64,000 nucleotides of DNA, taken from the IMG/VR virus record IMGVR_UViG_3300029305_004206; one strand, given 5' to 3'. The notes beneath the pieces were generated by a model, which searched no databases, was not told where the DNA came from, and worked only from the letters and a program-made list of their open reading frames with translations. Of this stretch, positions 13,135 through 63,998 are shown piece by piece; within the stretch, counting starts at the first letter, position 1, and each line of letters starts with the position of its first letter. Source of the stretch: an uncultured virus (IMG/VR IMGVR_UViG_3300029305_004206) (taxonomy: Duplodnaviria > Heunggongvirae > Uroviricota > Caudoviricetes). The position numbers and the translations under genes are program-made.

Positions 13135-13145
13135 TATATACAATT

Positions 13146-18598: not shown

Positions 18599-19114
18599 TT
18601 ATTTGTAACCATTTTCTTCTTTCCATTTTTTCATAATGGAAGTTGCTACTTCATCAACTTCGTTATTCATTTTACTAAAGAACGAATCGTCTGTCTGATG
18701 ACCTCTTGTATGCATTACTGAAAGATTTGGAATTTCTTTCTTATAACGCATAATTTCTTTCCAGACTTCTTTGTAGCTTACATCATCTCCAGATGAATTT
18801 CTGAATCCATTCTTTTCCCATTTTACTGAATATTCATTATAAGAACGAACTACATATGCTGAGTCAGAAACTATAATTTTTTCGACATTACACAATGTAG
18901 AATTTCTCTTATGAAGATATTTCAGGGCATTAAGAAAAGAATGTAACTCTGCATATGATATTGAATTATCTCCATAATCATATGCTTTCTTGAAAGTAAC
19001 TTCTTCATTTAATGTAACAACCATTCCACCAGTTGCATGTTGCGGTAAATCTGGTTTCTTATATCCATTATTGAATGAAGCACCATCAGTAAAAATTACA
19101 ACCTTATTAGCCAT
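18599..19114 (-). CDS. rnhA: Ribonuclease HI
   Basis: IFTDGAS, SYAELHS, VSDSAYV, HTRGH and NNEVDEVA. Start placed at MANKVV behind AAAGGAG. Confidence 0.9.
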   Translation of the reverse strand: MANKVVIFTDGASFNNGYKKPDLPQHATGGMVVTLNEEVTFKKAYDYGDNSISYAELHSFLNALKYLHKRNSTLCNVEKIIVSDSAYVVRSYNEYSVKWEKNGFRNSSGDDVSYKEVWKEIMRYKKEIPNLSVMHTRGHQTDDSFFSKMNNEVDEVATSIMKKWKEENGYK

Positions 19115-19179
19115 AAATAGATCATTCTCCTTTCTTATTAAATTTAGCATTAAGGTTTGATATATGATATATCAATAAG

Positions 19180-19187
19180 ATAATATA
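19180..19187 (-). promoter_or_regulatory. Putative early promoter motif TATATTAT
   Basis: Intergenic, ~65 nt upstream of rnhA; same motif at 52174(+), 56902-56909(-) and 24626-24633(-). Confidence 0.4.
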
Positions 19188-19222
19188 TATTCAGATATCT
19201 TTTCGTTTCAGGGGTAAGAATC

Positions 19223-33200: not shown

Positions 33201-36200
33201 TTAGGTCTATTAGCAGATGCTTCATTGGGAGTTACTGGTAGAATTGCTGGTGGTTTTGCAAGACAATTAGAAACACTTACATTTGGTGTATTTAAATATT
33301 CAAATACTATTCATGGTATGCATGGTATATTCCTTATGGTTAAGGATGGATTAATTAAAGTCAAAGATGGTATCGTTAATGTATGTAAATGGTTTGGAAA
33401 TCTTCCTGAGAATCTTGCTAATTTAGTAGAAAATTGGGAAAGTGCTATTTCTGGTGCATTATCAGGTACAAGATTTGAAATGTTAACTCAACCTATTATA
33501 TCTGCTATCAATGGTATTAAGAATATCTTTACATTTGCTTATGAATCACTTGAATATGTATTTGGTGGTTTTGCTAAGATGTTAGGTTTAGATAACTTGT
33601 GGAATAAAGCTAAGGCAAGATCAGCACAAGAAGTATCTAAAAATAACCTTGAAGCACTTAAGAACAGAATGTCAACTGAAGTTACATTAGGTTCTAATAA
33701 GATGGCTGGATTTGATATAAATTCTGCTGTCGGTCAAGCAAATAATTTGGATGCTGCACAGAAGGCTAATTTAGCAAACTATGCATCTCAATATACAGAA
33801 GGTGTAGACGTCATATCTGCAAATACATTAGATGCTTCTTATGGATTAACTGCAGAGACAATAAGAAATGTTGTATCTACATCTAAATCATATAATGAAG
33901 CGAATGGAATTACTGATAACTCACAACTCAATATAGATTCTTTATCTTCAGATCAGATTCAAACAGCATATGCTATTGAAGCAGAACGTGCTAAGATGTA
34001 TGAAGCTATAGCACAAGGCGACAATGGTAAAGTTCAAGAATTAGCTGGTTCTGATGTAGGTAAGTTATTAATGGAAAATGATGAAGCCTATAAGAAGTTG
34101 GTTGATTCTTCAGCAGCTATGTTGGGATCAATGGGTGGAGAGAAAGATCCAATGTCTCTTGGCGAGAAAATTGGTAAGGGTGTTGTTGGTGGTGTATTAG
34201 CATTACCTATTGCTAAGATGTTTATACCTATTGGTAAATCATTAATGTCTTCATTTAAACTTTTACTTTCACCTATTAATATCATCTTAAAAACATTTGG
34301 TATTGGAAAGAAAGCTAAAGCTAAGATTGATAATTCTCCTCTTGGACAAGTTAAAAATGCTTTTATTGGTCCTGATGGTGTTGTTCCTACAATGAAGAAA
34401 GTTTTAGAGGAAACTGGAGAAGCACTTATTAATAAGATTGCTAAAATGCAAGGATATGATGATGGTGGTATTACAGGAAACTATAAAAGTTCTCCTGTTA
34501 AAGATGCAACCACTAATAAAGGTCAGTTATTATTAGGTGCAGGATCTTCTAATGGTATGTCTCAGGAAGAATATGAAACAAGAAAGAGATCTATTAAATA
34601 TAATAGAAATCAATCTGCGAAACAGTTACAGGCTGATTGGCAGAATAAGAAAATTTCAGATGAAGTTTATAATAATGAACTTCGTAAAGTCAATGAGCAG
34701 TATAAAAAAGATATGGATGCTCTTTCTAAGAGTGTTGCTAAAGCGACAAATGATGTATCTGACGATATCAAAAAATCAGGAACTACTGTATCAAATTCTG
34801 TAAAAGATGCTGGTAAGAAGATTAAAAAGGGTTCTACTAATGCTAAAACAGATATTGATAAAGGAGCAAATGAAGTTTCTTCTACAACTAAGAAGAAAGG
34901 TCAAACTATCAAAGAAGCATGTACTAATATGAAGAATAAGGTAACACAGGGGGTTAATGATCTTAAAAATAAAGTAACTCAGAGTGCTACTGATCTTAAG
35001 AACAAAGTTAAAAATTCTGGTCATAAGGTTTCTTCAGAAATTAAAGAGTCTGGAACTAAGATTTCTAATTCTGCACAGAAAACATCAGTACAAGTTGATA
35101 ATGCTGGTGATAGAGTATCTAAAGAACTTATCGAACTTGGAACAGACGTTCAAAATGCTGGAACAAAATCAACAGCTCTTATTAATTCTACATCTACTGG
35201 TGGTGGTTCTACAGTTGCAAAGGCTGGACTATTTAGTAAATTAGGTTCAGGAATTAAGAAACTTGCATCTACTAAAGGTGGAAAAGCTGGATTAATAGTT
35301 GGTGGTATAGCTCTCGTTGGTGGTATTACTGCTTCTATCATTAATAAAAAGAAGAAAGCTTCTGATGTTAAGATGTCAGATTTAACAGCTGAAGAAAAGG
35401 CAGCTGCAAAGAGACTTCTTAATTCATTAAATAATGGTGAAATAACTACTGCTGATTTATCTGATGCCGAGATAGCACTTTTACAAGGTTATCAATCTGC
35501 ATTGTCTAAATCTGGTTCGTCTACTATTAGCAAAGTTGCGAATGTTGCTTCTACTGGTGCATTAGGATATACCGCTTCTGGTATTGCTGATGTATATAAT
35601 GCATCTGGAGTTGGCTCTAACGAAGAATTAGCTCAATTAGAGGGTTATTTAAGTGAAGCTGATATAGAAACTGCAACACAATCATCTGGTTCTGGAATTG
35701 GTTCTACATTATTAAATGTAGGTACAACTGCTGTTCCTTTATTAATGATGGGAACAACTGGAGATAAAATTAAGGGCGGACTTAAGAAAGGACTAAAGGC
35801 TGTTACTGGTAAATTTGGTAAGAAAGCTGCATCTAATGTTGCTAAAAAGACAGTTACAAAAACTGCTGGTAAAGGTTTATTATCTAAAATTGGCGGTTTA
35901 TTTGCTAAGAAAGGTGCAACTAAAGCTGTTACATCTGGAGTTGCTAAAGGTGCTGGTAGTGTTGCAGCAAAAGCTGGATTAGGTGGAGCTTTGAAGGGTG
36001 TATTAGGTGTTGCATCAAAAGCTGCTCCTTGGGCAGCATTAGCTTATGGTGGTTATAAAGCCATTAAAGGTGCTGTAAAAGCTAATGATACATTCGGTGT
36101 TGGTGAAGACTTTAAAACTACTGGTGGTATGAGAGCTGCATCTGCAGTTACAAATTTAATACCATTCCTTAGTGACAAAAATAAATCTAAAGTATCAACA

Positions 36201-39200
36201 TGGTTATATTCTACATTTGGTGGAGATAAGAAGAATGTTGAGAAGATTAAAGCAGCTCAATCAGGATATTCAGATGCTGAAGCATCAGAGTATGTTGAAA
36301 ATATGGATCGTTTAGAAACTGAACAGACTAAAAAGACATTCGAACTTCAGGCTAAAATGCAAGAAGTTATGAACGAGAGAACTTTATCATCTATGGATGA
36401 TATCAAACAACTTGATTCAATGAAACAAATGGATGATGAAACTCGCAATATGTTATTAGAAGTTTCTAAAGGTACTGTAAATGAAGCAGTTACTACTGCT
36501 TGGGTTACTGCAAGTAATAATGCTATGACTGAATTTAAGAAAGCTTTAGGACTTGACACCAAGACAAATATTTGGAATGGTCTCAAATCTACTCTTAAAG
36601 CAGGAGCAGCTGGAGCTGGTACTGGTGCTTTAATAGGTGCTAAATTCGGTGGTGCTGGCGGTGCATGGATAGGTGCTGGAATTGGTGCTGGTGTTGGTGT
36701 TATCGCTAATGTATGGCAAAAAATGAATAAAGCAACTGCTGTTGATGATAGAGTTGCTACTGTTGTTTCTGAAGTATCTATTAAATTAATGGATGCTTGG
36801 ATTGAGAAATTCAGATGGGTTTCTGGTGGTTCTTTTGAAGGTAAAGATTATGGTGAAGGATGGGTTAAGAAAATTATTACTGATGATCCTAACTTCCTTT
36901 CAAGTTCTAAAATTCCTGATACTCTTAAAAAGGTATCTCAAGAAGGAATGGGAGAAACTATTAGTCTTTTATGGAAAGAATCCAATAAGATTGCTGCTCA
37001 AGGTTTTAAAGAAGCAATTCAGAATGAAACACAATCTGAATGGTGGGATAAAGTATTACATTCTCCTATTACTAAAGGTATTCTCACAGTTGGTGGTGGA
37101 CTTTTAGGTGGAGTTACTGGTGCATCATTGACATATATGTTATTAGATGCTACTGATAAGAGAGGAAATCTTATTGAAGGTATCGCTGAAACAGCACAAC
37201 CTATAATTGCTTCTATTTCGGCACAGTTATCTGGTGCATGGATGGATAAATTTAGATGGATTGCTGGTGGAGATGGTTACGGAGAAGGATGGGTTCATAA
37301 GCTTATAACATCTGATGACAACTTCTTATCAGGTTCATCAATACCAGATGATCTTAAGAAGATTTCTCAAGAATCTATGGGCAAATCCATAAGCAGATTA
37401 TGGAAAGAATCTAATAAAATAGCAGAAGAAGGCTTTAAAGAAGCAATTCAGAATGAAACACAAACTGAATGGTGGGATAAAGTATTACATTCTCCTATTA
37501 CTAAAGGTATTCTCACAGTTGGTGCAACATTACTTGGTGGTTCATTAGGTGGAGCTACTGCTGCTTACTTACTTGATGCTACTGATAAAAGAGGTTCATT
37601 AGTTGAAGGTATTAAAGAAACCGCACAACCTGTTATATCAAGTATTTCTGCACAGTTGTCTGCTGCATGGATGGATAAATTCCAGTGGATTGCTGGTGGA
37701 GATGGATATGGTAATGGTTGGGTTAAACAACTTATCACTGATGATACTTCATTCTTATCGGGAACTTCATTACCAGATGACCTTAAGAAACTTTCACAAG
37801 AATCTATGTCATCTGCAGTTACTCGTATGTGGAAAGAATCTAACCTTATAGCTAAAGAAGGATTTACAGAAGCTATTCAGAATGAAACACAATCTGAATG
37901 GTGGGATAAAGTATTACATTCTCCTATTACTAAAGGAATCTTATCATTTAGTGCAGGTGCATTAACTACTGTTGCTACTGGAGGAAATGCCGTTGCAGGT
38001 GCTATGGTTGCAACTACTGCACAATCATTATTAGATGCTACTGATAGAAGAGGTTCTTTAGTTGAAGGTATTAAAGAAACTGCACAACCTATAATTGGAA
38101 GTGTCGTTGCTCAATTATCTGCTGCATGGATGGATAAATTCCAGTGGATTGCTGGTGGAGATGGATATGGTAATGGATGGGTTGGAAAACTCATAACAGA
38201 AGACCCCTCATTCTTAAAAGATTCACAGAAAGGCTTAGTTGATACGTCTAAATCTGCTATGTCAGAAGTAGTAAAGAAGATGTGGAAAGAATCTAATGAT
38301 ATCACTAAACGTGCGTTTAATGAAGCATTAGAAGACGAAACTGGTGGAACTTGGTGGGATAAAGTTTGTGCTTGGTTTGGCGGACTTGACGGAGACCATT
38401 CTGATAATGCAAATGCTACTTCCCAATTAATCACTGATATTCAAAATGACATTCAGCCTATTATTGGCTCAATTACTGACCAAATAAAAGATGCATGGAT
38501 TAATAAGTTCAAATGGATTGCTGGAGGAACTGAATATAGAAGACGTGGTGGAGATATCTCATATGGAGATGGTTGGGTTAAACAACTTATCACTAATGAT
38601 ACATCATTCTTATCAGGTTCTCAAGAAGGATTTATTAAATCTGCTAAAGACAGTATGTCAACTGCTCTAACCAAAGCTTTAAATATTTCTCATAATATTA
38701 ATAATAAGATTTGGGGTAGTGTATTTGCTACTGTTGCATCTAAAGAAGGATTAGGTAATTATGCTACTGACGTTGTTAATCTTGGTATGGGTGATGGAAA
38801 TTACTATTATCCATTAACTGAAGAACAACAGACTGCAAATAGTGACTCAATTCAGGCTGCTGAATCTATCGTTAAAGCTATTAAAGGACTCTGGGCAACT
38901 AAATTACTTCAGATGAGCAATGTTATTAATGCAGGTACTGCTGGATCTGATGCTTTCTCATCTTCAGATGTAGAAAATGCATTTAGTTCTATTAGTACTG
39001 AAGTTAATGACTTAAGTGACTTTATGTCATCTTCATCTGTAGATATAGATAATGCAAAAACATTATCATCACACTTCCAGTTTACTGATAATGGTGGAAA
39101 GTATGGTGGATTCAAGAAGTTCATATTCTTTACAAAGAGAATTGCAACTATGGCTCCTGTTATTGCTAAAATAACATCTGATGAAATTAAAGATGATTAT

Positions 39201-41348
39201 TCAAGTATAGGAACTAGTCTTTCTAAAGTTGGTTCTAAGATGGATTCATCATTAAGTTCAGCTAAAAGGTCAATTAGTAATGCAAGTAAGAGTTCTTCAG
39301 CTTCATCATTCTTTAGTGGAAGACCATCTACTTATGGTATGTGGGGTGGATTAGAAACTGCTGCTTACTATATGGGTAAAATATTCTTATATCCTAAGTA
39401 CTTAATAAGTGTTCTTAATAAGAAACTTCAGGGTGAATATAGTAACCTATCTGTATCTTGGCTGAAAGTTAATACATCTGAAGAAAGAGGTTCAAACTCT
39501 GGCTCAAGAGAAATGGGTGCTGGATCTCCAGATACATCATCTGTTTCAAGCTTCTTAAATTCCGCTGCTGGAACATCTGCAGTTGAATTTGGTCCAGCTT
39601 CAGGAACACAGTGTGTTGAATTGCCAAACTACTATGCTAACTATGTACTTGGTGCAAAACAGCAAGGTGGTAATGGTAATGGTAATGAATATGCACAGAC
39701 TATTGCTAATAGATTCCCATCTGTATTTACATATCATAATGCGAATGAGACACCACAAGCAGGAGATATTATATCTCTCGTTGGTACTCAAACTCAGTAT
39801 GGTCATGCTGCTGTCGTTAAAGATGTTTCTAACGGTCAGTTAACTCTTCTTGAGCAATGGGCAGGTTCAGGTGACATTAAAGAATCTACTTATAGTATTC
39901 CTGGTTCTGGAAAGAGAAAATTATTAGGTATTGCAAGACCTAATAATCTTGAAGGAGTAAATCTTAACGAAGATAGTTCTTCATCTTCAGATAGTAGTAG
40001 TGATTCTTCGTCATCTTCTGGTGGAAGAAGAATGGCTAACTTTATATCTCAACTCTCTGAATCTACTTCAAATATTTCTAAGACTTATTTGAAAGAAATG
40101 TTTGGTGTTGAAGATTTAAGTCAGTTCTTGACATCTGCTGGTGATGTATTCCTTAATATTGCAGATCCAGAAGTTGCATCTGCAGTTAAGAGTGCTATTA
40201 CATCTGGCTCTGATGGAAATGGAGATTATATAGGAGACTATGTAAAACACTTTGAATCAGGTTCTGCTGGTTCTTCTATGATTTCCAAAGGTACAGGAGA
40301 TTATGGCGGTGTATCTTTCGGTACTTATCAGTTCCCAACTTATGGAAAATCAACTGCAGATAGTAGTTCTATGCTTTCACAATTCTGGAATACTTATTAT
40401 AAATCTAAGTATGGTGGAACTCCTGGTAACAATCAGGACTTCAAGAATAAGTGGTTACAAGCAGTTAATGATGATCCAGAAGGATTTAGAAAGAACGAAC
40501 ATGCTTTCATCAAAGCTCATTATTATGATCCTCAAGTTAACAGACTTTCTGGTATTCTTAATCCTAATACACACTCAAGAGCTGCACAAGAAATGACTTG
40601 GTCAACTGCAGTTCAGTTCGGATCAGCTACAAATGTTATTAAAAATGCACTTGGCAATAAAAATAGTCAGAATCTGTCTGCAGCAGATCTTGTTAACAAG
40701 GTTTCTGACTATAAAACCAATAATAATGCATCACTTTTCAGTTCTTCATCTGCAGATGTTAGAGCAAGTGTTAAAAATAGACATAATGTAACTGAAAGAA
40801 ACATCTTACTTGGATTAGGAGATAAAGGTCCTATAGGTGGATCTGCAGAAATGGGTAGTAATTCAGGTGGTTCAGTTCATTTCCAGAAATTCTCTGGTTT
40901 TGGACCATCAGCACTTGCAAATTCTACACCTACTGTTAAGATGAATGATTATAGAACGGAAATATCTGATGATATTAATAAAACTCTTTCAGCAATTAAG
41001 GTTGCTAATGAGTCAGGTGGAAATGTAACTACTGCTTACATTGATACTATTATTGCTTATCTCAAAGCAATCGAAGAAAATACAAGAAATACATCTTCTA
41101 ATACAGAAGCATCTAATAAGAATGAAAATTCTATTATTTCAGCATTAGAAGAGATACTTAATTTAAAATCATCTGGTGATGCGAATGTTGTAGTTGTTGG
41201 CGGCGACAATTCATCTTCAAACAACCAGTTGCATACTAAAGAAGTCGCAAACATCTTTGCAAATCATGGGATACAAGATGAAAATGAGGCTCAAAAAGTT
41301 AATGATAAATTAAGGAAAATTGCAGATTTGATTGCAAAAGGTAAGTAA
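27279..41348 (+). CDS. Giant tape-measure-like tail protein with C-terminal CHAP and lysozyme-like (VgrG3-C-type) peptidoglycan hydrolase domains
   Basis: 4689 aa, Ala/Gly/Lys-rich and helical with glycine-zipper hydrophobic segments. CHAP: QCVELP...GNGNEY...AGDII...YGHAAVV...EQ. Muramidase-like: FESG...DYGGVSFGTYQF...HYYDP...WSTAVQFG. Confidence 0.8.
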   Translation: MAKKKRKFNSGNAFKNYVKNLGKSALDLGKDVLFEDDLMGGIKELIDENKELAEQGLQAYKDRENIFKMVKDTVNKQVFSQVKDLKKNVLSDIKSGRIYNSERADKEFMEGFGADDILGDDFFDEMDDFGEDLKSGISDSLDDFADDLSSNFSSTMSDFSNDIVKSNTKSTLAGINADIKMHKQSMEGMSVVNSSIGALASFNESRVSPFLDKAMEYYDKSIEQRERTNQLLEEMVGFQKETEIADTSTVAEKVLGMSYSTFNIKEYAKAVTQTTSNIIAETFGIDLGDSGGTFGAGNMVKNIVNNPIGVLMKGLITKALPQTFKDASKMLSQSITSFFPSLMLKFNDMADQHFGTLKGYIGQIFGIDMKASASANLGFEKGKVNFDGITRKTIIDVIPTYLRKILAAITKSDEIVFDRSSGKFTTMRAAQKAAEELDTPSVFDYYDSKSKIVGHAESSYNMTAEQSKNFQKLVDDVFENISKNVSGLVHRDIDFTKLKGLDITKAEAEMMSRAFQAFSNEDFLKLQSEHAASKKSRAQKMKDFNANIDDSIATQYLMVADLNNPEYMKKLRQSASKRGKFSDRDASSFQFSSGLKVNDDARKRLARQDAFRRAKAENPNLKEADFYKDYDEKQRVSSMGKGKGSEFLDRVVGEEVKGFFANAKKIMSKPFDILSKQFQKFDNFLYKIIFDSDVTKNAKEKIGGLFKDLKLKIFGKRLGWGASAMGWEVNGLLSGTFDIFRDFGLGFGNFLFGKGYINRKGELKTNDKPLFGTIKTKFTDLYGKAKNYLFGEKDEDGNVTKDGFFTRAKDKMFDLVERTKLYLFGEKDEDGNVLDGKAGVIPQKYQDLFKKYAPHAATGAGIGAVASIFLPFGGMIGTLGGAVAGTVLEMDKVKDWLWGPENDEGKRENGVLTRTKNKLYEQIGRLDKYLFGDNVEGKLGKLGMTKQKFGMGTGIGAGLGLLGSFILPGGSILGTLVGAAAGFASQTDKFQKFLFGDDQAAADSWRKDGLLPTAKEFLTDKVLNPIRDYTVGTFRYVKDFVNAKMVVPFNLAFKPIAVEAGLQIKKTFKNITQFTQNLWHGFMDSMSEKMDNLFGAGAKKFILAPLGEYFKDRIENLGSMISKGMKKPMDKIQDYASRLRMKHQAQGNDGYMRGTKYGDLVDDWRNRNVNDNWNKRTQMKGSHADYVAQATADRIKKREEWLAKNGGFNPFSKDYKLPRNKKGEVLSGDELGNTAIIANLSEDQIGEGIAKETEFVSEGQIAERRALRLKHFKGLSKGNANAIRDISKDPSASRGERISAFISEKVSSIGSTLTGIYEHIKVISKGVGKSSLGMDDDAFKKFDDDTNTSMQNLLDEDRGIDKDEIYNKNKMAIAKAMEKKSFKARKAMQDAGYSDDQIQDLATQQRNKNYLDATRETKIAGARKAYQEAIASGDTKKAAAIESATKKKYGDGITLGDAHNALPVAKNPVASVVSDANQTKAELSKGGLDSSEQKQLALRQAEMEQKEQDSENIAKTAENTSLFKQVFEKGKGWLWGFASKALKWGALVLPLLAAGKKVSETIKNIINSGDKGQQFMDALGNIQTIANGKGARIAELGYDLARIPINPLVNPKLNKKFAQGTVKLAGSTADHLKGFMGKSPFIDALKTSFNPASYTKTGRALGGSFMDDTVKAFTGGLADDAIGAYADKMVARQLGEKLGSEAMSAYATKQSSKLASQLTLKNKAIKMAGGELSEAALAKYSPNFFAKSLNKIANSGLLNKYLGGTKLGSKAISEISQAAAKSASKAMAKEGTERVGMALATKLAGPLVNGALFGVDMARGYNEANRIFNLPADYEPTFGMKASAAVGKGISELLLGLVNPGWISERIYNVIGSNEDKEILKKQQEALALQAGVSLEALYSDDAEISKMAKSQLKAYSETVNKTAFTKLGEWSKTDGAKTMGTIAKAVANWKIPGVSGAVSFAVGAADGKTARQDLGLLADASLGVTGRIAGGFARQLETLTFGVFKYSNTIHGMHGIFLMVKDGLIKVKDGIVNVCKWFGNLPENLANLVENWESAISGALSGTRFEMLTQPIISAINGIKNIFTFAYESLEYVFGGFAKMLGLDNLWNKAKARSAQEVSKNNLEALKNRMSTEVTLGSNKMAGFDINSAVGQANNLDAAQKANLANYASQYTEGVDVISANTLDASYGLTAETIRNVVSTSKSYNEANGITDNSQLNIDSLSSDQIQTAYAIEAERAKMYEAIAQGDNGKVQELAGSDVGKLLMENDEAYKKLVDSSAAMLGSMGGEKDPMSLGEKIGKGVVGGVLALPIAKMFIPIGKSLMSSFKLLLSPINIILKTFGIGKKAKAKIDNSPLGQVKNAFIGPDGVVPTMKKVLEETGEALINKIAKMQGYDDGGITGNYKSSPVKDATTNKGQLLLGAGSSNGMSQEEYETRKRSIKYNRNQSAKQLQADWQNKKISDEVYNNELRKVNEQYKKDMDALSKSVAKATNDVSDDIKKSGTTVSNSVKDAGKKIKKGSTNAKTDIDKGANEVSSTTKKKGQTIKEACTNMKNKVTQGVNDLKNKVTQSATDLKNKVKNSGHKVSSEIKESGTKISNSAQKTSVQVDNAGDRVSKELIELGTDVQNAGTKSTALINSTSTGGGSTVAKAGLFSKLGSGIKKLASTKGGKAGLIVGGIALVGGITASIINKKKKASDVKMSDLTAEEKAAAKRLLNSLNNGEITTADLSDAEIALLQGYQSALSKSGSSTISKVANVASTGALGYTASGIADVYNASGVGSNEELAQLEGYLSEADIETATQSSGSGIGSTLLNVGTTAVPLLMMGTTGDKIKGGLKKGLKAVTGKFGKKAASNVAKKTVTKTAGKGLLSKIGGLFAKKGATKAVTSGVAKGAGSVAAKAGLGGALKGVLGVASKAAPWAALAYGGYKAIKGAVKANDTFGVGEDFKTTGGMRAASAVTNLIPFLSDKNKSKVSTWLYSTFGGDKKNVEKIKAAQSGYSDAEASEYVENMDRLETEQTKKTFELQAKMQEVMNERTLSSMDDIKQLDSMKQMDDETRNMLLEVSKGTVNEAVTTAWVTASNNAMTEFKKALGLDTKTNIWNGLKSTLKAGAAGAGTGALIGAKFGGAGGAWIGAGIGAGVGVIANVWQKMNKATAVDDRVATVVSEVSIKLMDAWIEKFRWVSGGSFEGKDYGEGWVKKIITDDPNFLSSSKIPDTLKKVSQEGMGETISLLWKESNKIAAQGFKEAIQNETQSEWWDKVLHSPITKGILTVGGGLLGGVTGASLTYMLLDATDKRGNLIEGIAETAQPIIASISAQLSGAWMDKFRWIAGGDGYGEGWVHKLITSDDNFLSGSSIPDDLKKISQESMGKSISRLWKESNKIAEEGFKEAIQNETQTEWWDKVLHSPITKGILTVGATLLGGSLGGATAAYLLDATDKRGSLVEGIKETAQPVISSISAQLSAAWMDKFQWIAGGDGYGNGWVKQLITDDTSFLSGTSLPDDLKKLSQESMSSAVTRMWKESNLIAKEGFTEAIQNETQSEWWDKVLHSPITKGILSFSAGALTTVATGGNAVAGAMVATTAQSLLDATDRRGSLVEGIKETAQPIIGSVVAQLSAAWMDKFQWIAGGDGYGNGWVGKLITEDPSFLKDSQKGLVDTSKSAMSEVVKKMWKESNDITKRAFNEALEDETGGTWWDKVCAWFGGLDGDHSDNANATSQLITDIQNDIQPIIGSITDQIKDAWINKFKWIAGGTEYRRRGGDISYGDGWVKQLITNDTSFLSGSQEGFIKSAKDSMSTALTKALNISHNINNKIWGSVFATVASKEGLGNYATDVVNLGMGDGNYYYPLTEEQQTANSDSIQAAESIVKAIKGLWATKLLQMSNVINAGTAGSDAFSSSDVENAFSSISTEVNDLSDFMSSSSVDIDNAKTLSSHFQFTDNGGKYGGFKKFIFFTKRIATMAPVIAKITSDEIKDDYSSIGTSLSKVGSKMDSSLSSAKRSISNASKSSSASSFFSGRPSTYGMWGGLETAAYYMGKIFLYPKYLISVLNKKLQGEYSNLSVSWLKVNTSEERGSNSGSREMGAGSPDTSSVSSFLNSAAGTSAVEFGPASGTQCVELPNYYANYVLGAKQQGGNGNGNEYAQTIANRFPSVFTYHNANETPQAGDIISLVGTQTQYGHAAVVKDVSNGQLTLLEQWAGSGDIKESTYSIPGSGKRKLLGIARPNNLEGVNLNEDSSSSSDSSSDSSSSSGGRRMANFISQLSESTSNISKTYLKEMFGVEDLSQFLTSAGDVFLNIADPEVASAVKSAITSGSDGNGDYIGDYVKHFESGSAGSSMISKGTGDYGGVSFGTYQFPTYGKSTADSSSMLSQFWNTYYKSKYGGTPGNNQDFKNKWLQAVNDDPEGFRKNEHAFIKAHYYDPQVNRLSGILNPNTHSRAAQEMTWSTAVQFGSATNVIKNALGNKNSQNLSAADLVNKVSDYKTNNNASLFSSSSADVRASVKNRHNVTERNILLGLGDKGPIGGSAEMGSNSGGSVHFQKFSGFGPSALANSTPTVKMNDYRTEISDDINKTLSAIKVANESGGNVTTAYIDTIIAYLKAIEENTRNTSSNTEASNKNENSIISALEEILNLKSSGDANVVVVGGDNSSSNNQLHTKEVANIFANHGIQDENEAQKVNDKLRKIADLIAKGK
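36780..38620 (+). repeat. Intragenic tandem ~143-aa (429-bp) repeats in the tape-measure-like gene
   Basis: Near-identical DNA blocks (...CAGAATGAAACACAA.CTGAATGGTGGGATAAAGTATTACATTCTCCTATTACTAAAGG) at ~37011, 37440 and 37869; W..KF.W..GG...YG.GW occurs five times. Confidence 0.85.
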
Positions 41349-41349
41349 G

Positions 41350-41361
41350 AACATATAGATA
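41350..41361 (+). promoter_or_regulatory. Putative late promoter AACA-N6-TA
   Basis: AACA TATAGA TA immediately after the tape-measure stop codon. Confidence 0.5.
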
Positions 41362-41394
41362 AGAGATAACGTTGTTTAATGACGTTATCTCTTA
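41360..41394. terminator. Hairpin (terminator or 5' stem-loop)
   Basis: TAAGAGATAACGTT / GACGTTATCTCTTA. Confidence 0.55.
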
Positions 41395-41441
41395 TTTAGT
41401 TCTCTTTAGTGAAAATTATAGGAAAGGAGAGTGAATGTAAA

Positions 41442-43340
41442 TTGGCTGAAAATATAAGAAATGCTGAAGGTAAAAATATACGAACCAATCATACTTTAGT
41501 TGGTAATTATAATATAAGATCTGCTCCATCTATGGATGGACAAATTAAAACAACTTTACCTAAAGGCACTACTGTATCTGTATATATGACAGAAGGAAAT
41601 TGGAGTAAATTATATTCTCCATCTGATTATAAAGATTGCTGGGTTTCTTCTCAAGGTTTATCTGCTTCTACTGGGAGCGAAATAATGGAAACCTCACAAC
41701 CTGCACCAACAACATCCGAACCATCTTTTGATAGAGCTTCAGCTCAATCATATGTAAATCAGCAATATGCTAATCTTGGTAAAGATAGTTTTGATGCTTT
41801 TAATGCTGATGTATATGATACATATACAAGACTTAATCAATACGCAGATGATAGTGAAAAATTTGATGTAAATAGTGACGACTATGTAAGACTGCAACAA
41901 TCAATGTTTCAAGAGTATAATGCAAGTATGTCATTAATAGATCAATTAGTTAGTGGTTTTGATAGTTATTTTTCATCAGATATCCAACTGCATATGATTT
42001 CTGGTATGCCACCTCAGTTTAATGAAATGGCTGATCCTCGTATAATGGATACAAATGAAAAGCCTATGTATACTTCTCTTCATGCATATGGAGATGGTAT
42101 AGGAAGAATGTTTCAGCATTATATAGCTGAAGACATTCCTCTTGTTTTAATAAAGCCAGGAAAACCCAAATTTATGCCTTCTGTATCTATATTTGATAGA
42201 ACTAAAATTACAAAAGCAGTAAGACAGAAATTATGGGATCAGGATGAGGAAGAAGGATTTTCTTCATCTATTAAAGGAAAATCATTACAAGAAGTTCTTG
42301 CTGAATATAACGGAGATTATAATGACACAAGATATTATGGTTTCCAAGCAGATTATGACACATATTGTAAGTATGTAAATACAATGTGTAGACATACTGC
42401 TGTTAAAATGGGATTATCTGATTATACAAACTTTAATATTTCATCTAATGATGGTTATGGTTTAAAAAACTTTATTATGAGAAATTCATTAGGATTCTTC
42501 TTTGATAAAGAATCAACTTCAGAATCAGATAGTGCATCAACATCAGTTGGTGAATCACAATTAGCAGGAACACTAAAAAGTGCTGGATCTGTAGTTAGAG
42601 AAGCACAATTTATATTCGGTGCTGGTGAAGCTGCTAACAGAGGAACTGAAGCACAAGAAAAGTACCAAGCAGAGATGGAAAATTTAATGGGAACTGTAAA
42701 AACGGATCCTTCATCTTTCTTCGGTAGAATTAAAAATTCAGGTAAGACATTATTTACAGGTGGTAATCTATTATTCCCTGAAATATGGCAAGATTCTTCA
42801 TATAGTAAGTCCTATACATTAGGATTTAATTTATTTACTCCTTATGGAGATAAAGAAGCTATATTTAGAGATATTTATGTGCCATTCTATTCATTATTAG
42901 CATTAACACTTCCAAGACAGATAACTGCACAAGGTTATACTGCTCCATTTGTATTAAAGGTTGCAACACAAGGTTGGTTTAGTTCTGATATGTGCATGAT
43001 TTCATCATTCTCCTTTGATAAAGGAGAAAATGATGGATGGACTAAAGATGGTTATCCGTTATCAATAAAAGTAAATATGTCATTAACAGATTTATATCCT
43101 GTTTTAATGATGAGTACAGATAAACATACAAGAATTCTATCTAACAATACTGGTTTGATAGAATTTATGGATGCTATGGCTGGTATTACTTTTAATGATT
43201 ACGATCCTTGGAGACAACTTGAGATGGCTTTAGCTGCAAGATGGAATGTTATTGGAGATATCCCTTATTCTATTCAGAACAAGATGATTTCATCTATGGA
43301 TAGTGTTGCTAATAAAGTAAATAAATTCTTATTTAGATAA
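41442..43340 (+). CDS. Baseplate/tail structural protein with N-terminal SH3b domain
   Basis: YNIRSAPSMDGQIKTTLPKGTTVSVYMTEGNWSKL is SH3b-like. C-terminal FPEIWQDSSYSKSY...YTAPF...PLSIKVNMSLTDLY is tube/baseplate-like. Start placed at TTG 41442 behind AAGGAG (ORF track gives 41409). Confidence 0.6.
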   Translation: MAENIRNAEGKNIRTNHTLVGNYNIRSAPSMDGQIKTTLPKGTTVSVYMTEGNWSKLYSPSDYKDCWVSSQGLSASTGSEIMETSQPAPTTSEPSFDRASAQSYVNQQYANLGKDSFDAFNADVYDTYTRLNQYADDSEKFDVNSDDYVRLQQSMFQEYNASMSLIDQLVSGFDSYFSSDIQLHMISGMPPQFNEMADPRIMDTNEKPMYTSLHAYGDGIGRMFQHYIAEDIPLVLIKPGKPKFMPSVSIFDRTKITKAVRQKLWDQDEEEGFSSSIKGKSLQEVLAEYNGDYNDTRYYGFQADYDTYCKYVNTMCRHTAVKMGLSDYTNFNISSNDGYGLKNFIMRNSLGFFFDKESTSESDSASTSVGESQLAGTLKSAGSVVREAQFIFGAGEAANRGTEAQEKYQAEMENLMGTVKTDPSSFFGRIKNSGKTLFTGGNLLFPEIWQDSSYSKSYTLGFNLFTPYGDKEAIFRDIYVPFYSLLALTLPRQITAQGYTAPFVLKVATQGWFSSDMCMISSFSFDKGENDGWTKDGYPLSIKVNMSLTDLYPVLMMSTDKHTRILSNNTGLIEFMDAMAGITFNDYDPWRQLEMALAARWNVIGDIPYSIQNKMISSMDSVANKVNKFLFR

Positions 43341-50226: not shown

Positions 50227-52083
50227 TTAATATGATTTATCATAGAATAATAATTTAGCAGTTCCATCAAAGTACATTTTGCTATTACCATCTTCATCAA
50301 TCCATCTTTTAATAGTAGTTCCATCACCTTTAGGAAATACTCTATAAATACCAACACTATTTTTCCAAGTATTTTTAGGATTCTTATCAAGATTTCCACT
50401 CATGTATTGATTGTATTCTTCTGCTATTGTATCTGGGTTTGTATTATAACTTCCAAATATTGTATTAAATTCTTTGATAATTGTCGGTTCCATATCTTCT
50501 TTAAATGAGAACGCATACTGGATTGGAACGTTAATCATATTTGCAGTTCCTTTATTCCAAGATAATGCAGAGTATGGAACATTTATAGGATAAATTCCTG
50601 TATATTTAGCAAAGTATTTAATAGTACAACCATCTTCACCTACTAAAAAGTAATATAAAGATGCAACATAATCTATATATCTTTGCTTTAATGAAATTTC
50701 TGATGGTTTAAAATAACCGTATCTTACATTTGTAATATAATCTACCCATGCTTTATGCATTAATGTAACTGATAGATATTGGTCTTCTTCATATGTTATT
50801 GTAAAGCTACCATTTGTAACTGAAGATGCTTCAGAACCAGGAAGAGAATATTTATAATTCTTAATAGTAGAAACAGTTATATCCTGATTGAGAGTTACAT
50901 CTTGACAATCAAAGTTAGTTGCTTTATTAGTCAATAATCTAATAATTCCTGGCGGTGAACTTGGAATAGGATCTGTATCTGAAGTTCCATATGTCAAGTT
51001 TGTCATTATATTTTTACCTTTAATAGTTGCAGCCAAGTTTGCAAAATATCTTTGAGATGCAAGATTTTCAGATGAGAAATTACATTTAGGTTTAGTAATG
51101 AATATATATGCTCTACCATTTGTGGCTCTATCTATATATTCAGCAGTTTTCCACCTATTATAATATGTAAATTCCTTTTCATCTTGTAAAGTAGGTATAT
51201 AAATGCCTAAATCTTTATGAATCTCTTTAATATCGAAATCTATTTCATTCTCAGGTTTAACTGGTTCACCAGAAGCAGAGACAGTATAATTTAAAACATC
51301 AACTTTATATCTGTGAATGAAATTTTTAATAAACTTTGCGACTTTACCACCATCTGCCCATCCTTGAGACAACATAACACCTGGACCAAATGTTTCGCCA
51401 GCATTACCAGTTTGCATTTCTGCCCAGTAACCAGTATCATCTATAATTCCCTTTGCTTGATGGAAATATATATTTGAATTGTAAGTATCAGTTCCAGATC
51501 CTAATACTCGACCAAATCTATTAAAGAGTTCTCTAATTAAATCAGTATCATCTGCTTCTACACCATTACCAGCATAATTAGCAAGATAATCATCTTCATA
51601 TGAGTTAATTAGACCTTCTTGTAGTAAAAAAGTTCTTTCAGCACTTATATAAGCACCACCACGAGCTTTATTAGCAGATTCGCCAAATATTGCTTTGTGC
51701 ATTGAATCTCTAAATCTTATAAATAATACTGCGACATATTCTGGATTAAAACCGCCATCATTATCTTTTCTTTGTTCAATATTATACCAATATTCTTTGG
51801 GATTTAATTTTAATTCTTTGGAACAAGCTTCTACCCAATCATGATAGTTATCATAATTAGGATCGTCAGATGGATTATTTGCACCTACATAAACTGCAGT
51901 ATAACCTTTATTATTAAACTTTGTAGCAATAGCTCTAAATAAATACCATACCATATCTGTAGATATAGGATTATCACTTTTCACCCAGTTAGTCCAGTCA
52001 TTAGGGCTGTTAATACACTTTTCATAAGTAGAACTAGCAAGTTCAGATATCGCTGTAACACCAGCTGATCTATTATCTGCCAT
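50227..52083 (-). CDS. Baseplate/tail-tube-fold protein (T4 gp19/gp48/gp54-like) with ~310-aa N-terminal extra domain
   Basis: YIFITKP, GSFTITYEE...LMHKAWVDYI, DYVASLY...KYTGIYPINVP. Confidence 0.6.
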   Translation of the reverse strand: MADNRSAGVTAISELASSTYEKCINSPNDWTNWVKSDNPISTDMVWYLFRAIATKFNNKGYTAVYVGANNPSDDPNYDNYHDWVEACSKELKLNPKEYWYNIEQRKDNDGGFNPEYVAVLFIRFRDSMHKAIFGESANKARGGAYISAERTFLLQEGLINSYEDDYLANYAGNGVEADDTDLIRELFNRFGRVLGSGTDTYNSNIYFHQAKGIIDDTGYWAEMQTGNAGETFGPGVMLSQGWADGGKVAKFIKNFIHRYKVDVLNYTVSASGEPVKPENEIDFDIKEIHKDLGIYIPTLQDEKEFTYYNRWKTAEYIDRATNGRAYIFITKPKCNFSSENLASQRYFANLAATIKGKNIMTNLTYGTSDTDPIPSSPPGIIRLLTNKATNFDCQDVTLNQDITVSTIKNYKYSLPGSEASSVTNGSFTITYEEDQYLSVTLMHKAWVDYITNVRYGYFKPSEISLKQRYIDYVASLYYFLVGEDGCTIKYFAKYTGIYPINVPYSALSWNKGTANMINVPIQYAFSFKEDMEPTIIKEFNTIFGSYNTNPDTIAEEYNQYMSGNLDKNPKNTWKNSVGIYRVFPKGDGTTIKRWIDEDGNSKMYFDGTAKLLFYDKSY

Positions 52084-52131
52084 AAATTATTTCACCTACC
52101 TTTTATATAATTTGTTTTCTGTTAATACAGT

Positions 52132-52143
52132 TATTATATTGTT
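52132..52143 (-). promoter_or_regulatory. Putative late promoter AACA-N6-TA for the baseplate operon
   Basis: Minus strand AACA ATATAA TA ~50 nt upstream of ATG 52083. Confidence 0.55.
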
Positions 52144-52173
52144 GGGATGACAATTTTATGGAAATTTAAAGTA

Positions 52174-52181
52174 TATATTAT
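52174..52181 (+). promoter_or_regulatory. Putative early promoter TATATTAT
   Basis: Directly precedes the structured non-coding segment. Confidence 0.4.
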
Positions 52182-52185
52182 ATTT

Positions 52186-52658
52186 TTGCAAAATAATTTA
52201 CTAATGACAATATAGGAATTAGTTTATTTTGCAAGGCGAGACATGAGTTGCTTTCCTTTCATAGATAGATGCATATGTCTATGATAAACATGATTCTTTT
52301 ATTCGACCATAGTTATTTGGGAATATCTGTGAAATATTCTATTCCTATATTTAATTAAGTGATAATATAATTGTCTATTAAAGTATAGGAAGGAATGATG
52401 TAATGATAAGTGATGATGTAATTGACATTCTCTTACCATTCGTAGTTCAAACAGAAACCAACCGAAAAGGACAATGTGCAGAAGATTCATTTATTAATGA
52501 AGATAAAAACTTCAGAAATGCATACTCCCTCAACCGAAAATCTTCCTTTGATAACGAAATGGACAAAAGAAAGAAAATGAACGAAATTACGTAGGAAAGG
52601 CAACTCGTAATGGGGAAACGATGAAAGTGAAAAGTCGTTTCCCTAATATTTTTTTTTT
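52186..52658 (+). ncRNA. Candidate large structured non-coding RNA (~470 nt)
   Basis: 5' hairpin 52186-52234; long-range helix GAGTTGCTTTCCT 52245-52257 / AGGAAAGGCAACTC 52593-52606 enclosing several hairpins; ends in a terminator. Confidence 0.5.
52613..52658 (+). terminator. Rho-independent terminator
   Basis: GGGAAACGAT / GTCGTTTCCC followed by a T-run. Confidence 0.7.
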
Positions 52659-52678
52659 CTATGTTCCTATGATAAACA

Positions 52679-52690
52679 AACACTAAATTA
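52679..52690 (+). promoter_or_regulatory. Putative late promoter AACA-N6-TA
   Basis: AACA CTAAAT TA 30 nt upstream of ATG 52721. Confidence 0.55.
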
Positions 52691-52720
52691 ACTTTATTAA
52701 GAAAAGGAAGTGAAATAATA

Positions 52721-54019
52721 ATGGGTTTAATCAGTGAACTTATCGATCTGACAAAGCTTGTTAAAGATTCTAATATCAATACTGAAGAATTGATGTCAAG
52801 AATGGCAAGTAAACAGTCTATTGCAAAAATGACTAAAGATGCTATCCTTCAGTTCCCTGTTCTTGTGTCAAATACTTTATCTTTAGATACAGTTACTACA
52901 CTAAATAAAGCATTAGAAAGACAGTATTCATCTTTTGTTATGGTTGCAACTGATTTAATTTCAGTTCAGAAAAATGGTCGTGATGCTACAGCCTTCTTAA
53001 GATTTATTCATCAGAATACTATGCCTGGGTCACCTGCTAATTATCATATTGAGAAGACAGGAATTCAGCAGACATTCTATAATTCTGTGATGAAAGAAGA
53101 TATGCAGTTATGTGAAGATATGAATGATTTTAAATATAAATCATTAGGTCTTAGACAAGAATCTGCTAATAGTGCTTCTTTAAAAACACGAATGAATATT
53201 CTCACTGAAGCAAAGGACGAAGAAGACAAGAACTTTGAAAGAGAAAAGATTCAAACAAAGTTCGAAAATGATGTTGAATTAGCAAGAATGAAATCAACTG
53301 CAGATTTAGCATCCTCTAAAATGAAAGAAAACTATAAGAAAGCAACCAATCAAGACTTCACAGCAAAGTTAAAGGATAATGATGTTAAGAAGTCTAACGA
53401 ATTAGTTCCGACTCTTCTTGAAGTTACTCTTCAATTTAGAGATCCTGGTTCTGATGCTGTTATTAAACAGACATTTACTATTGGTATTAAAACTGTATGT
53501 CATCCTGTATCTTCAGATGATATTATTTACAATGTATCACAAGCATTTACAGGTAAGAAGTTATTCTTAAAGTTTATTAGATGGACAACTGGAGAAATTA
53601 AGTTCTTCAGAGATTTCTTATTTAATATTGATACTATTAAGAAGAACATTATGCAGGAAAGAAAACAGGTTCCTTGGTGGTCTGCATTAAGAAATCGTGC
53701 AACTTATAATAGAACTATTGCTAATCTATTTAAAGATTCAAAATTATTACCTAATGCTACGATTGTTTTAACTACAGATGAAGCTGAAGTTATTAAATCT
53801 ACAACTGGTATTGATATTTTTAAAGATTCAGGAAGAGTTCAAAAGGTTATGCAAGATTTATCATTACTTGGTTTAGTTATCGTAAATGAATCATCTGAAG
53901 TTGCTTGGTTTAAATTTGATGGTGATACTAAATGGTATAACTATGGATTTAATTCTCTTGAAAGAGAAAATAAAAACCCAAATAATGATGTAAAAGCTTT
54001 GTTATCATTATTAAAATAA
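52721..54019 (+). CDS. Putative virion structural (head) protein
   Basis: 432 aa; late promoter motif; LQFPVLVS and KKSNELVPTLL; internal xxE motifs (RQESA, ILTEA). Confidence 0.45.
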   Translation: MGLISELIDLTKLVKDSNINTEELMSRMASKQSIAKMTKDAILQFPVLVSNTLSLDTVTTLNKALERQYSSFVMVATDLISVQKNGRDATAFLRFIHQNTMPGSPANYHIEKTGIQQTFYNSVMKEDMQLCEDMNDFKYKSLGLRQESANSASLKTRMNILTEAKDEEDKNFEREKIQTKFENDVELARMKSTADLASSKMKENYKKATNQDFTAKLKDNDVKKSNELVPTLLEVTLQFRDPGSDAVIKQTFTIGIKTVCHPVSSDDIIYNVSQAFTGKKLFLKFIRWTTGEIKFFRDFLFNIDTIKKNIMQERKQVPWWSALRNRATYNRTIANLFKDSKLLPNATIVLTTDEAEVIKSTTGIDIFKDSGRVQKVMQDLSLLGLVIVNESSEVAWFKFDGDTKWYNYGFNSLERENKNPNNDVKALLSLLK

Positions 54020-63395: not shown

Positions 63396-63998
63396 TTAAT
63401 TCTTCCCATTACTTCTTAATTTATCTCTGTCAAATATTCTGACAATTCCGTATGGTTCTCTTAATGAGATGCGACCTTCTTTATGAGTTGTAACCCATAT
63501 AGTTCTGAAATGAGATGGTTTTACTGTAAGTTCAGATTCACCATAACCATCGGTTAGATATATCAAGATATCATTTTTAAGGTTATTCTTCTTAAGGTAC
63601 TCAAATACAGGACTAAATTCGGTTCCACCATTACCATTACGAGTTACCTTCTTAACATCTTTTGCAGATTTAAGAATCTCTATTGACTGGATATCAGCAT
63701 CACATTGAATTACAGTTATCTCTTTATTTTTAATTCCTTTTAATATAAAGAGAATTTCATTCAAAAATGCACTCATATCATCATCAGATATTGAACCTGA
63801 TACGTCAATGGCAACTACAATTTTAACCTCATGATTAGATAATCTTCCTTTGAGTTCTATTCTATGAGGTTGTCTTCTATCATTTCTCATAATAGATTTT
63901 TTATAAGGAACTGGAACTGAACCTGCAAACTTCTTAAGATAATCTTGCCACTCTAAAACAGGTTTCTCATTAAGTTGGTTAATAATTGTCATAATATG
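63396..63998 (-). CDS. vWA-like domain protein (DUF2201 type); 5'-truncated by the window
   Basis: MIDAS motif VAIDVSGS, GNGGTEFSPVF and YLTDGYG; frame is open to the window edge. Confidence 0.85.
   Translation of the reverse strand, partial: HIMTIINQLNEKPVLEWQDYLKKFAGSVPVPYKKSIMRNDRRQPHRIELKGRLSNHEVKIVVAIDVSGSISDDDMSAFLNEILFILKGIKNKEITVIQCDADIQSIEILKSAKDVKKVTRNGNGGTEFSPVFEYLKKNNLKNDILIYLTDGYGESELTVKPSHFRTIWVTTHKEGRISLREPYGIVRIFDRDKLRSNGKN

Follow-up and report, generated by a model that had tools for sequence, protein, structure and literature searches.

The segment at positions 52174-52660 (+ strand) of the window, the 64,000-nt stretch of DNA from an uncultured virus that we analysed, is probably an autonomous early gene whose compactly folded RNA is a structured messenger for a small protein. 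Its promoter, predicted start, terminator and borders support a transcription unit of the early type that stands alone and is not a leader of either flanking operon, and units of the same layout are found at the same locus in related jumbo phages.

Locus and genome setting

The candidate unit lies inside a 637-nt gap (52084-52720) between two divergent genes. The following genes define its surroundings.

50227-52083, - strand: left neighbour gene, with a match to a virion structural protein family
52721-54019, + strand: right neighbour gene, with a match to a virion structural protein family
20376-24476: gene for a multisubunit RNA polymerase beta-like subunit, encoded in the window

A search against PHROGs matched the flanking genes to phrog_21400 (6.1e-57) and phrog_23804 (9.8e-48), both of which are virion structural families. 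In tblastn searches, the nearest named relatives of the flanking proteins were those of the Bacillus phages AR9/PBS1, Staphylococcus jumbo phages, Listeria phage LPJP1 and Yersinia phage phiR1-37, with 24-35% identity; for AR9/PBS1, Staphylococcus, Listeria and metagenomic jumbo phages taken together, the identity is 27-40%. The AR9-related flanks and the RNA polymerase beta-like subunit therefore indicate that the window is a piece of an AT-rich, AR9-like jumbo phage.

Parts of the stretch are contained in 15 sequencing runs, and the contigs from the four runs examined showed no variants. One contig from an RNA-library run spans 52213-52594 with zero differences. Considering that DNA may have been present in this library and that the non-coverage of the flanks is uninformative, the contig is compatible with a transcript but is no proof of one.

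Promoter, terminator and borders of the unit

The early promoter consensus of AR9 is AAATATATATTAT-(6N)-G+1 and its late consensus is AACA-(6N)-TA/G, as given in the AR9 study (PMC5312081). The signals found in and around the gap are listed below.

52169-52181, + strand: early promoter motif AAGTATATATTAT, of the virion RNA polymerase type
52174-52181, + strand: TATATTAT, within the early promoter motif
52188, + strand: predicted transcription start G52188, 6 nt behind the motif, placed by the AR9 rule (G+1)
52611-52658, + strand: terminator, a 12-pair hairpin (52611-52645, 11-nt loop), then AATA and T10 at 52649-52658
52132-52143, - strand: late motif AACAATATAATA of the left neighbour, fitting the late consensus; border of the unit
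52679-52690, + strand: late motif AACACTAAATTA of the right neighbour; border of the unit

The original prediction had given the segment its own promoter, and this was borne out by a motif that agrees with the AR9 early consensus at 12 of 13 positions and has a G at +1. The exact promoter core TATATATTAT occurs only three times in the 64 kb, and one of the other occurrences precedes an RNase H-like gene. The early motif is also found in the syntenic gap of the relatives, and a Staphylococcus jumbo phage preprint describes TATATTAT as an early motif upstream of 29 MarsHill genes. The predicted hairpin and T-run at the 3' end are likewise present; a simple terminator scanner found nothing here because its loop limit is 8, while the hairpin loop has 11 nt. 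Both flanking operons have AACA-N6-TA motifs of their own, as had been claimed, and the RNA is not their leader. No late motif was found within 52188-52658 on either strand. A search of the - strand of this interval detected no early or late phage motif, and its weak sigma-70-like matches were at chance level.

The AR9 counterpart

The AR9 record lists an early promoter in the corresponding gap (g213/g214). The supplementary tables of the AR9 study (PMC5312081) list an early start at 181724 under g214, with a TEX enrichment of 3.87 and the entry 'UTR 340'; this start, mapped by dRNA-seq, is in exactly the same register as G52188. The same tables give g214 a separate late start at 182012 and FPKM values of 0.69, 20.67 and 1426.72 at 5, 20 and 40 min, respectively (PMC5312081). 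Because g214 is silent at 5 min and has its own late start, the AR9 early RNA does not read into g214. We infer that this RNA ends at a T-run about 260 nt downstream of its start, near 181,980.

These data bear on the possibility that the segment is a plain long 5' leader of the downstream virion gene, giving that gene early or continuous expression. The listing of 181724 under g214 with 'UTR 340' agrees with such a role; however, the late start of g214 and its rise from an FPKM of 0.69 at 5 min to 1426.72 at 40 min argue against it, and in the window a hairpin and T10 stand between the RNA and the gene, which has its own late motif (52679-52690). We give the leader explanation hardly any credence.

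The AR9 unit resembles that of the window in its promoter consensus, its start register, its slot between the same two divergent virion genes and its order of leader, Shine-Dalgarno (SD)-led small ORF and T-run. It differs in size, with an RNA of about 260 nt and a 15-codon frame compared with about 470 nt and 63 codons in the window, and the two have no sequence similarity beyond the promoter. The AR9 record has no gene annotated there. A full-text literature search returned no description of this unit, and the AR9 paper (PMC5312081) assigns the start only to the g214 leader.

Fold of the predicted RNA

Every motif and helix named in the original prediction is present in the sequence at the position given for it. 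The main elements of the fold are as follows.

52188-52232, + strand: 5'-terminal hairpin GCAAAATAA / TTATTTTGC, starting at the first transcribed base
52245-52257, + strand: 5' arm of the closing helix, GAGTTGCTTTCCT; the helix has 13 pairs and a single bulged G
52259-52284, + strand: leader hairpin TCATAGA...TCTATGA
52321-52339, + strand: internal hairpin GAATAT/ATATTC
52342-52391, + strand: long leader hairpin; its 3' arm, TATAGGAA, extends over the first SD bases
52593-52606, + strand: 3' arm of the closing helix, AGGAAAGGCAACTC, overlapping the final two bases of the stop codon

In its full extent (52186-96/52224-34), the 5' hairpin is a perfect helix of 11 bp, and most of the relatives also have a paired 5' end in their minimum-energy folds. 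Through the 13-pair closing helix the leader pairs with the 3' end, so that the whole ORF lies in one closed domain. A helix of at least 13 pairs between leader and 3' end had a p value of ~0.01 in 200 shuffles of the trailer. The single-helix leader/trailer test was significant only for the window, Machias and AH12. An RNAduplex test of leader versus trailer, which gave p = 0.55 for the window, was dropped as unsuited because its statistic permits huge internal loops. A census of inverted repeats in the window (149 pairs) was uninformative.

The + strand of 52174-52660 folds with -119 kcal/mol, compared with -87.7 ± 5.2 for 100 dinucleotide shuffles (z -5.98, 0 of 100 as good). Folded from the predicted start, the RNA has -116.4 (z -6.08), and the - strand has z -4.58. 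Compared with 199 other 471-nt segments of the 64 kb, the fold energy was equalled or surpassed in 19, and its GC-adjusted residual in 8. By this genomic control the fold is therefore in the top 4-10% and is no outlier, and the shuffle z overstates how unusual it is within this genome. The claim of a large structured RNA is borne out in part, by the helices and the shuffle z, and has to be qualified by this rank. The duplicated A-rich motifs described earlier were found where they had been placed (CAACCGAAAA at 52459 and 52531; AACGAAAT at 52553 and 52580), but the duplicated 10-mer was rejected as a special feature, as repeats of at least 10 bases occurred in 24.6% of 1000 shuffles and are at chance level.

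The unit might then be explained by chance helices of an AT-rich spacer behind an early promoter, with a spurious ORF and at most transcription through the gap. The genomic rank of the fold, the chance level of the duplicated motifs and the chance helices of 8-10 pairs that AT-rich untranslated regions yield fit this explanation. Against it stand the p value of the closing helix (~0.01), the retention of the layout over about nine lineages with flanking proteins only 24-40% identical, and the coding selection and compensatory changes in the relatives described below. We regard the chance explanation as very improbable.

The ribosome-binding site had been predicted to lie in a stem, and indeed the first bases of the SD are part of the hairpin 52342-52391. 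The mean unpaired probability from -14 to +5 around the start codon is 0.20 in this RNA, compared with 0.58 in the adjacent late gene.

A search of Rfam 15 with the window gave no match at E values up to 10, the best hits reaching 23.1 bits against a cut-off of 45, and the loci of 12 relatives gave 0 matches at the gathering score. The tRNA/tmRNA search of the stretch was also negative, in agreement with the earlier statement that it lacks tmRNA ends.

The 63-codon ORF

The RNA contains an SD-led frame.

52387-52394, + strand: Shine-Dalgarno sequence AGGAAGGA, 8 nt before the ATG at 52403
52403-52594, + strand: 63-codon ORF for an acidic, hydrophilic orphan protein

This ORF has a coding score of +0.24 per codon, a low value for a gene, at the 2.4th percentile of 289 true-frame chunks. 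The score exceeds all 578 wrong-frame chunks, a control that is biased by the stop codons in those chunks. The ORF outscores the three other ORFs in the gap, and the ORFs on the opposite strand score 0 or less. The encoded protein has a pI of 4.95 and a GRAVY of -0.87, with 12 acidic and 10 basic residues.

Neither the RNA nor the protein of the window has a close relative, and the 63-aa ORF is an orphan. Searches of 5.8 billion and of 1.84 billion proteins with the 63-aa sequence retrieved only itself, a blastn search of phages with the RNA gave no match, and IMG/VR yielded no close relative when scanned with patterns from the small ORF and from the 618-aa neighbour. Structural look-alikes from the ESM Atlas scored below 0.9, with a pLDDT of 0.47 for the Atlas model, and provided nothing usable. 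When the 63-aa protein and its counterparts in the relatives (12 small proteins) were searched against Pfam and PHROGs, nothing was found below E 0.01, and an all-against-all BLASTP of the small proteins yielded within-clade pairs only. An N-terminal peptide motif shared across clades was considered and rejected: a profile of seven N-termini gave the window ORF 0.4 bits, outside the top 15 of 435 ORFs.

Occurrence of the layout in related phages

The layout was defined as an early motif with a G or A six bases on, a leader, an SD with a small open frame, and a T-run. Of the 16 annotated phage records, 14 have a unit of this kind; in the other two, Fusobacterium JD-Fnp4 and Yersinia phiR1-37, the gap is short and holds none. 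It was also found at 10 of 10 IMG/VR loci and at 5 of 9 metagenome loci, among which L016 is cut off, L021 has another gene order, and L013 and L014 were left out. The layout is thus common to about nine lineages, between which the flanking proteins are no more than 24-40% identical. All 27 units of the relatives contain an SD-led small ORF, of 6 to 81 codons (that of LPJP1 was read by eye), with the following lengths.

LPJP1: 6 codons
BpSp and AR9: 14-15 codons
L004 and L001: 26-29 codons
Staphylococcus phages: 43-52 codons (S6: 44)
L003, L005, L006 and L007: 75-81 codons

In some of the Staphylococcus records the frame is listed as a hypothetical protein; the AR9, Internexus, BpSp and LPJP1 records carry no annotation for it. 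The peptides of AR9 and BpSp are short and hydrophobic, and those of the Staphylococcus phages are hydrophilic and acidic. Two observations on these frames count against a messenger role: the range from 6 codons (LPJP1) through 14-15 (BpSp, AR9) to 81 is a poor fit to a conserved protein, and no homology was detected between the small proteins of different clades.

The folds of 12 of 13 transcripts had z values from -3.3 to -6.1, and that of L001 had -1.7 (Machias and AH12 are outside this set). The 469-nt RNA of LPJP1, with a frame of only 6 codons, had z -5.31. A low unpaired probability at the SD was found in 6 of 14 units (the window and five others), and a high one in Machias and AH12. 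SD masking as a general rule is unsupported (Wilcoxon p = 0.14).

Selection on the small frames

The small frames are under purifying selection in three lineages. The L006/L019 frame shows 6 synonymous and 0 non-synonymous changes (pN/pS 0.00), five pairs from the L007 clade have pN/pS values of 0.09-0.15, and the S6/LY01 frame has 0.10. For other pairs the value is 0.5-1.3, and for the more distant Staphylococcus phages it is 0.7-1.3. The segment had originally been taken for a noncoding RNA of unknown class, and this assignment is not supported as it stands, in view of the purifying selection in three lineages and of the SD-led small ORF in every unit of the relatives.

In the distant Staphylococcus phages, the frame is 55-58% identical, and leader and trailer are 90-97% identical. 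A sliding profile of the neighbouring virion gene of these phages revealed blocks of 92-98% identity and hypervariable patches of its own. The Staphylococcus genomes are mosaic, with equally conserved coding blocks, and the view that the leaders are more conserved than the neighbouring genes was therefore withdrawn. These genomes thus have several hypervariable patches, of which the small frame is one, and conservation of the leader does not exceed that of coding DNA close by.

Long-range helices in the relatives

Long-range helices that bracket the ORF and carry compensatory changes were found in three clades, and the evidence for them is direct but thin. Helix arms other than those from RNAalifold were located by patterns written after the pairs had been seen, with two to six distinct sequences per comparison, and chance helices of 8-10 pairs are common in AT-rich untranslated regions. 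The frame of the Staphylococcus phages is enclosed by two nested long-range helices. Helix A has 9 positions, of which 2 are compensatory and 1 is a non-pair (AH12); helix B has 14, of which 2 are compensatory, 4 are one-sided (wobble-compatible) and 0 are broken. RNAalifold identified in these phages a leader helix, TGTGAAC/GTTCACA versus TGTAGAC/GTCTACA, with two compensatory positions, and an additional 10-pair helix that is fully conserved. One Staphylococcus leader hairpin has a CCC in its loop that stays invariant over differing stems, and this is the sole lead to a base-pairing or protein-binding activity of the RNA apart from its frame.

The closing helix of L001/L004, located just before the T-run, has 10 positions with 1 compensatory and 2 one-sided changes, and an adjoining helix has 8 positions with 4 compensatory changes; RNAalifold recovered the outer part of the closing helix unaided. 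In AR9/BpSp, one compensatory pair each was found in the 5'-end helix and in the helix before the T-run, and RNAalifold gave a 13-pair, sequence-invariant helix around the frame. The latter crosses the helix before the T-run, so the two are alternatives or form a pseudoknot. No closing helix was evident in L003, L005, L006 and L007. The original prediction had asked whether the ORF is kept as a protein while the helices are not. Neither outcome was observed: within clades, the ORF and the helices are both kept.

An alternative to the messenger is that the RNA itself is the functional product, as a dual-function RNA, a riboregulator or a decoy for proteins or ribosomes, with the ORF as secondary or swappable cargo and the closed scaffold as the selected part. 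The layout is constant while the ORFs are entirely different from clade to clade and span 6 to 81 codons, LPJP1 makes a 469-nt RNA with only a 6-codon frame, the Staphylococcus leader and trailer are far better conserved than the ORF (90-97% versus 55-58%), the helices covary, and the CCC loop is invariant, all of which would suit such an RNA. However, a properly spaced SD before an open frame is kept everywhere, the frame is under purifying selection in three lineages, the Staphylococcus identities reflect mosaicism with a leader no more conserved than nearby coding DNA, and Rfam was negative for the window and the loci of 12 relatives. We consider a functional RNA product possible but unlikely, and the structured messenger remains our preferred explanation.

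Comparison with known RNAs

RNAIII (hld) of S. aureus and SR1 of B. subtilis are dual-function small RNAs of Firmicutes. The RNA of the window resembles both as a long multi-helix RNA with long-range pairing that encodes a small peptide. It differs from them in that it matches no Rfam model, is encoded by a phage and is preceded by a promoter of the phage polymerase.

The hok messenger has an architecture in which the 5' and 3' ends fold back on each other, a masked ribosome-binding site and a membrane peptide as its product. In the window, a fold-back helix (52245-57/52593-606) enclosing the frame and a masked ribosome-binding site are similar to those of hok/sok, and a type I toxin messenger of this kind, in which both features hold a toxic peptide untranslated until the RNA is processed, would explain why leader and 3' end are held together by the closing helix and why SD and AUG lie in stems. 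The short, hydrophobic peptides of AR9 and BpSp would also agree with it. However, the window protein is hydrophilic and acidic (GRAVY -0.87, pI 4.95) and no membrane peptide, and the Staphylococcus proteins are of the same character. An antisense promoter was not found: the opposite strand has no early or late motif inside the unit. The ORFs of that strand score 0 or less. A structural look-alike to the Hok cluster was below the tool's own bar. A hok-like toxin is thus highly unlikely.

A small RNA upstream of phiKZ gp182 and 201phi2-1 gp277 has been described from giant phages; according to that report, it is shorter than 250 nt, is derived from a 5' UTR and contains no ORF (PMC11512511). 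Like the RNA of the window, it is a small structured jumbo-phage RNA whose position beside a virion gene is kept. The two are not identical, as the gp182-linked RNA belongs to another locus: the gp182 homologue of the window is at 41409-43340 (E 2e-17), and the gene behind the RNA described here is unlike gp182.

GOLLD and ROOL are large structured RNAs that often occur in phages of Firmicutes, and both are represented in Rfam. They share with the RNA of the window that they are large structured RNAs in phage genomes of low-GC hosts. In contrast to them, the RNA of the window is smaller and has an SD-led frame, and neither family was matched by the window (E up to 10) or by the 12 relatives' loci (gathering score).

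A more speculative view, which we hold to be rather doubtful, is that the AR9-like jumbo phages of low-GC hosts have an undescribed class of early 'closed-loop' RNAs, of which the window RNA would be a deep-branching member. The injected virion polymerase would make a scaffold of long-range helices, which would act itself, either in riboregulation or by decoying a host nuclease, the ribosome or a defence sensor, and would carry a fast-evolving, interchangeable small ORF.

Proposed mode of action and significance

For the structured messenger that we favour, the injected virion RNA polymerase would start at G52188 and stop at the hairpin and T10 (52611-52658), giving an RNA of about 470 nt, independent of both flanking late virion-protein operons. 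This RNA would be the messenger of the 63-aa acidic orphan protein (52403-52594). Its first bases would be locked in the 11-bp hairpin and its last bases in the terminator hairpin. In low-GC bacteria, exonucleases that attack from the 5' and 3' sides are slowed by paired 5' ends and by terminal hairpins, and translation is limited or delayed where initiation sites are masked. The fold may thus shield both RNA ends from exonucleases, and with SD and AUG in stems, translation may be throttled or gated. As the closing helix has its 3' arm starting within the stop codon, a ribosome that terminates there would have to melt it, and translated and untranslated copies would therefore fold differently. 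The small protein may act in host take-over or counter-defence.

We rate the unit as a small early phage gene with a structured messenger, in which the part worth following is the closed-loop layout that is conserved in position at the level of the family. Where a jumbo phage brings in its own RNA polymerase, functions in host take-over and counter-defence are expected among the early genes, of which small ones are routinely missed. This unit was mapped experimentally in AR9 and treated there as a leader; its position is kept across jumbo phages of Bacillus, Staphylococcus, Listeria and gut metagenomes. It is a well-defined and inexpensive object of study, since AR9 on B. subtilis and the Staphylococcus jumbo phages can be handled in the laboratory. 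The AR9 and PBS1 records have no gene at the locus, and their annotation should add one. The small frame is constrained in some lineages and hypervariable in others, and the RNA helices are conserved, which raises the question of whether these phages rely on structured early RNAs, on small proteins or on the two together.

Other early-promoter cores and genes in the window

Two further exact cores of the AR9-type early promoter lie on the minus strand of the window. The core at 13125-13140 (-), TATATATTAT, is followed by a G six bases further on and is directed antisense into the 3' end of a 304-aa peptidase-like gene at 12220-13134 (+). A hairpin, AGCGATAAGG...CCTTATCGCT, was found immediately upstream of it on the same strand. 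The third exact core of the window, at 19166-19189 (-), has a G at +1 and precedes an RNase H-like gene (18599-19150), from which a leader of some 50 nt separates it. Early expression in replication or nucleic-acid metabolism would suit such a gene. An HNH endonuclease-like ORF at 63396-63992 (-), which matches phrog_1314 (5.6e-45), closes the window.

In the stretch 27279-43340, one ORF of 4689 aa contains a segment resembling endolysins; behind it come a gap of 60 nt and then the following gene:

41409-43340, homologue of phiKZ gp182 (E 2e-17)

This gene order parallels that of phiKZ gp181-gp182. The gap itself (41349-41408) opens with a late-promoter motif at 41350-41361. A conserved sRNA of giant phages has been published upstream of phiKZ gp182 (PMC11512511), and the gap is the position where this sRNA would be expected.

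Syntenic early RNAs in related phages

The syntenic early RNA of Listeria phage LPJP1 (L023 1318-1786) is 469 nt long, with a fold z of -5.31. It holds a frame of 6 codons only, behind a GGGGG Shine-Dalgarno-like run, and its 3' end is a perfect hairpin of 20 pairs. The LPJP1 record carries no annotation at these coordinates.

The genomes of the Staphylococcus jumbo phages S6, SA1, MarsHill and LY01 are mosaics. Their hypervariable patches include the small frame within the early RNA (positions 276-410 of the S6 RNA) and a block of about 500 nt in the virion gene downstream, which, counted from the start of the RNA, spans roughly +1020 to +1500. Identity is 24-67% in these patches and 92-98% in the surrounding DNA. 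A leader hairpin (S6 locus L012 3445-3480, with counterparts in loci L024 and L026) is shared by the RNAs of all ten Staphylococcus jumbo phages. CCC in its loop is invariant, but the S6-like group and the Machias-like group have different stem sequences. C-rich loops typically serve as seed regions in the regulatory RNAs of low-GC bacteria.

The AR9 early RNA (L011 2246-2467) contains two long-range helices, both conserved. The first, AGTATATAGACC/GGTTTATATACT, encloses the small frame, and the second, AACCACCT/AGGTGGTT, lies directly ahead of the T-run. The two helices cross each other and therefore represent either alternative folds or a pseudoknot. Alternative folds in AR9 might constitute a switch linked to termination.
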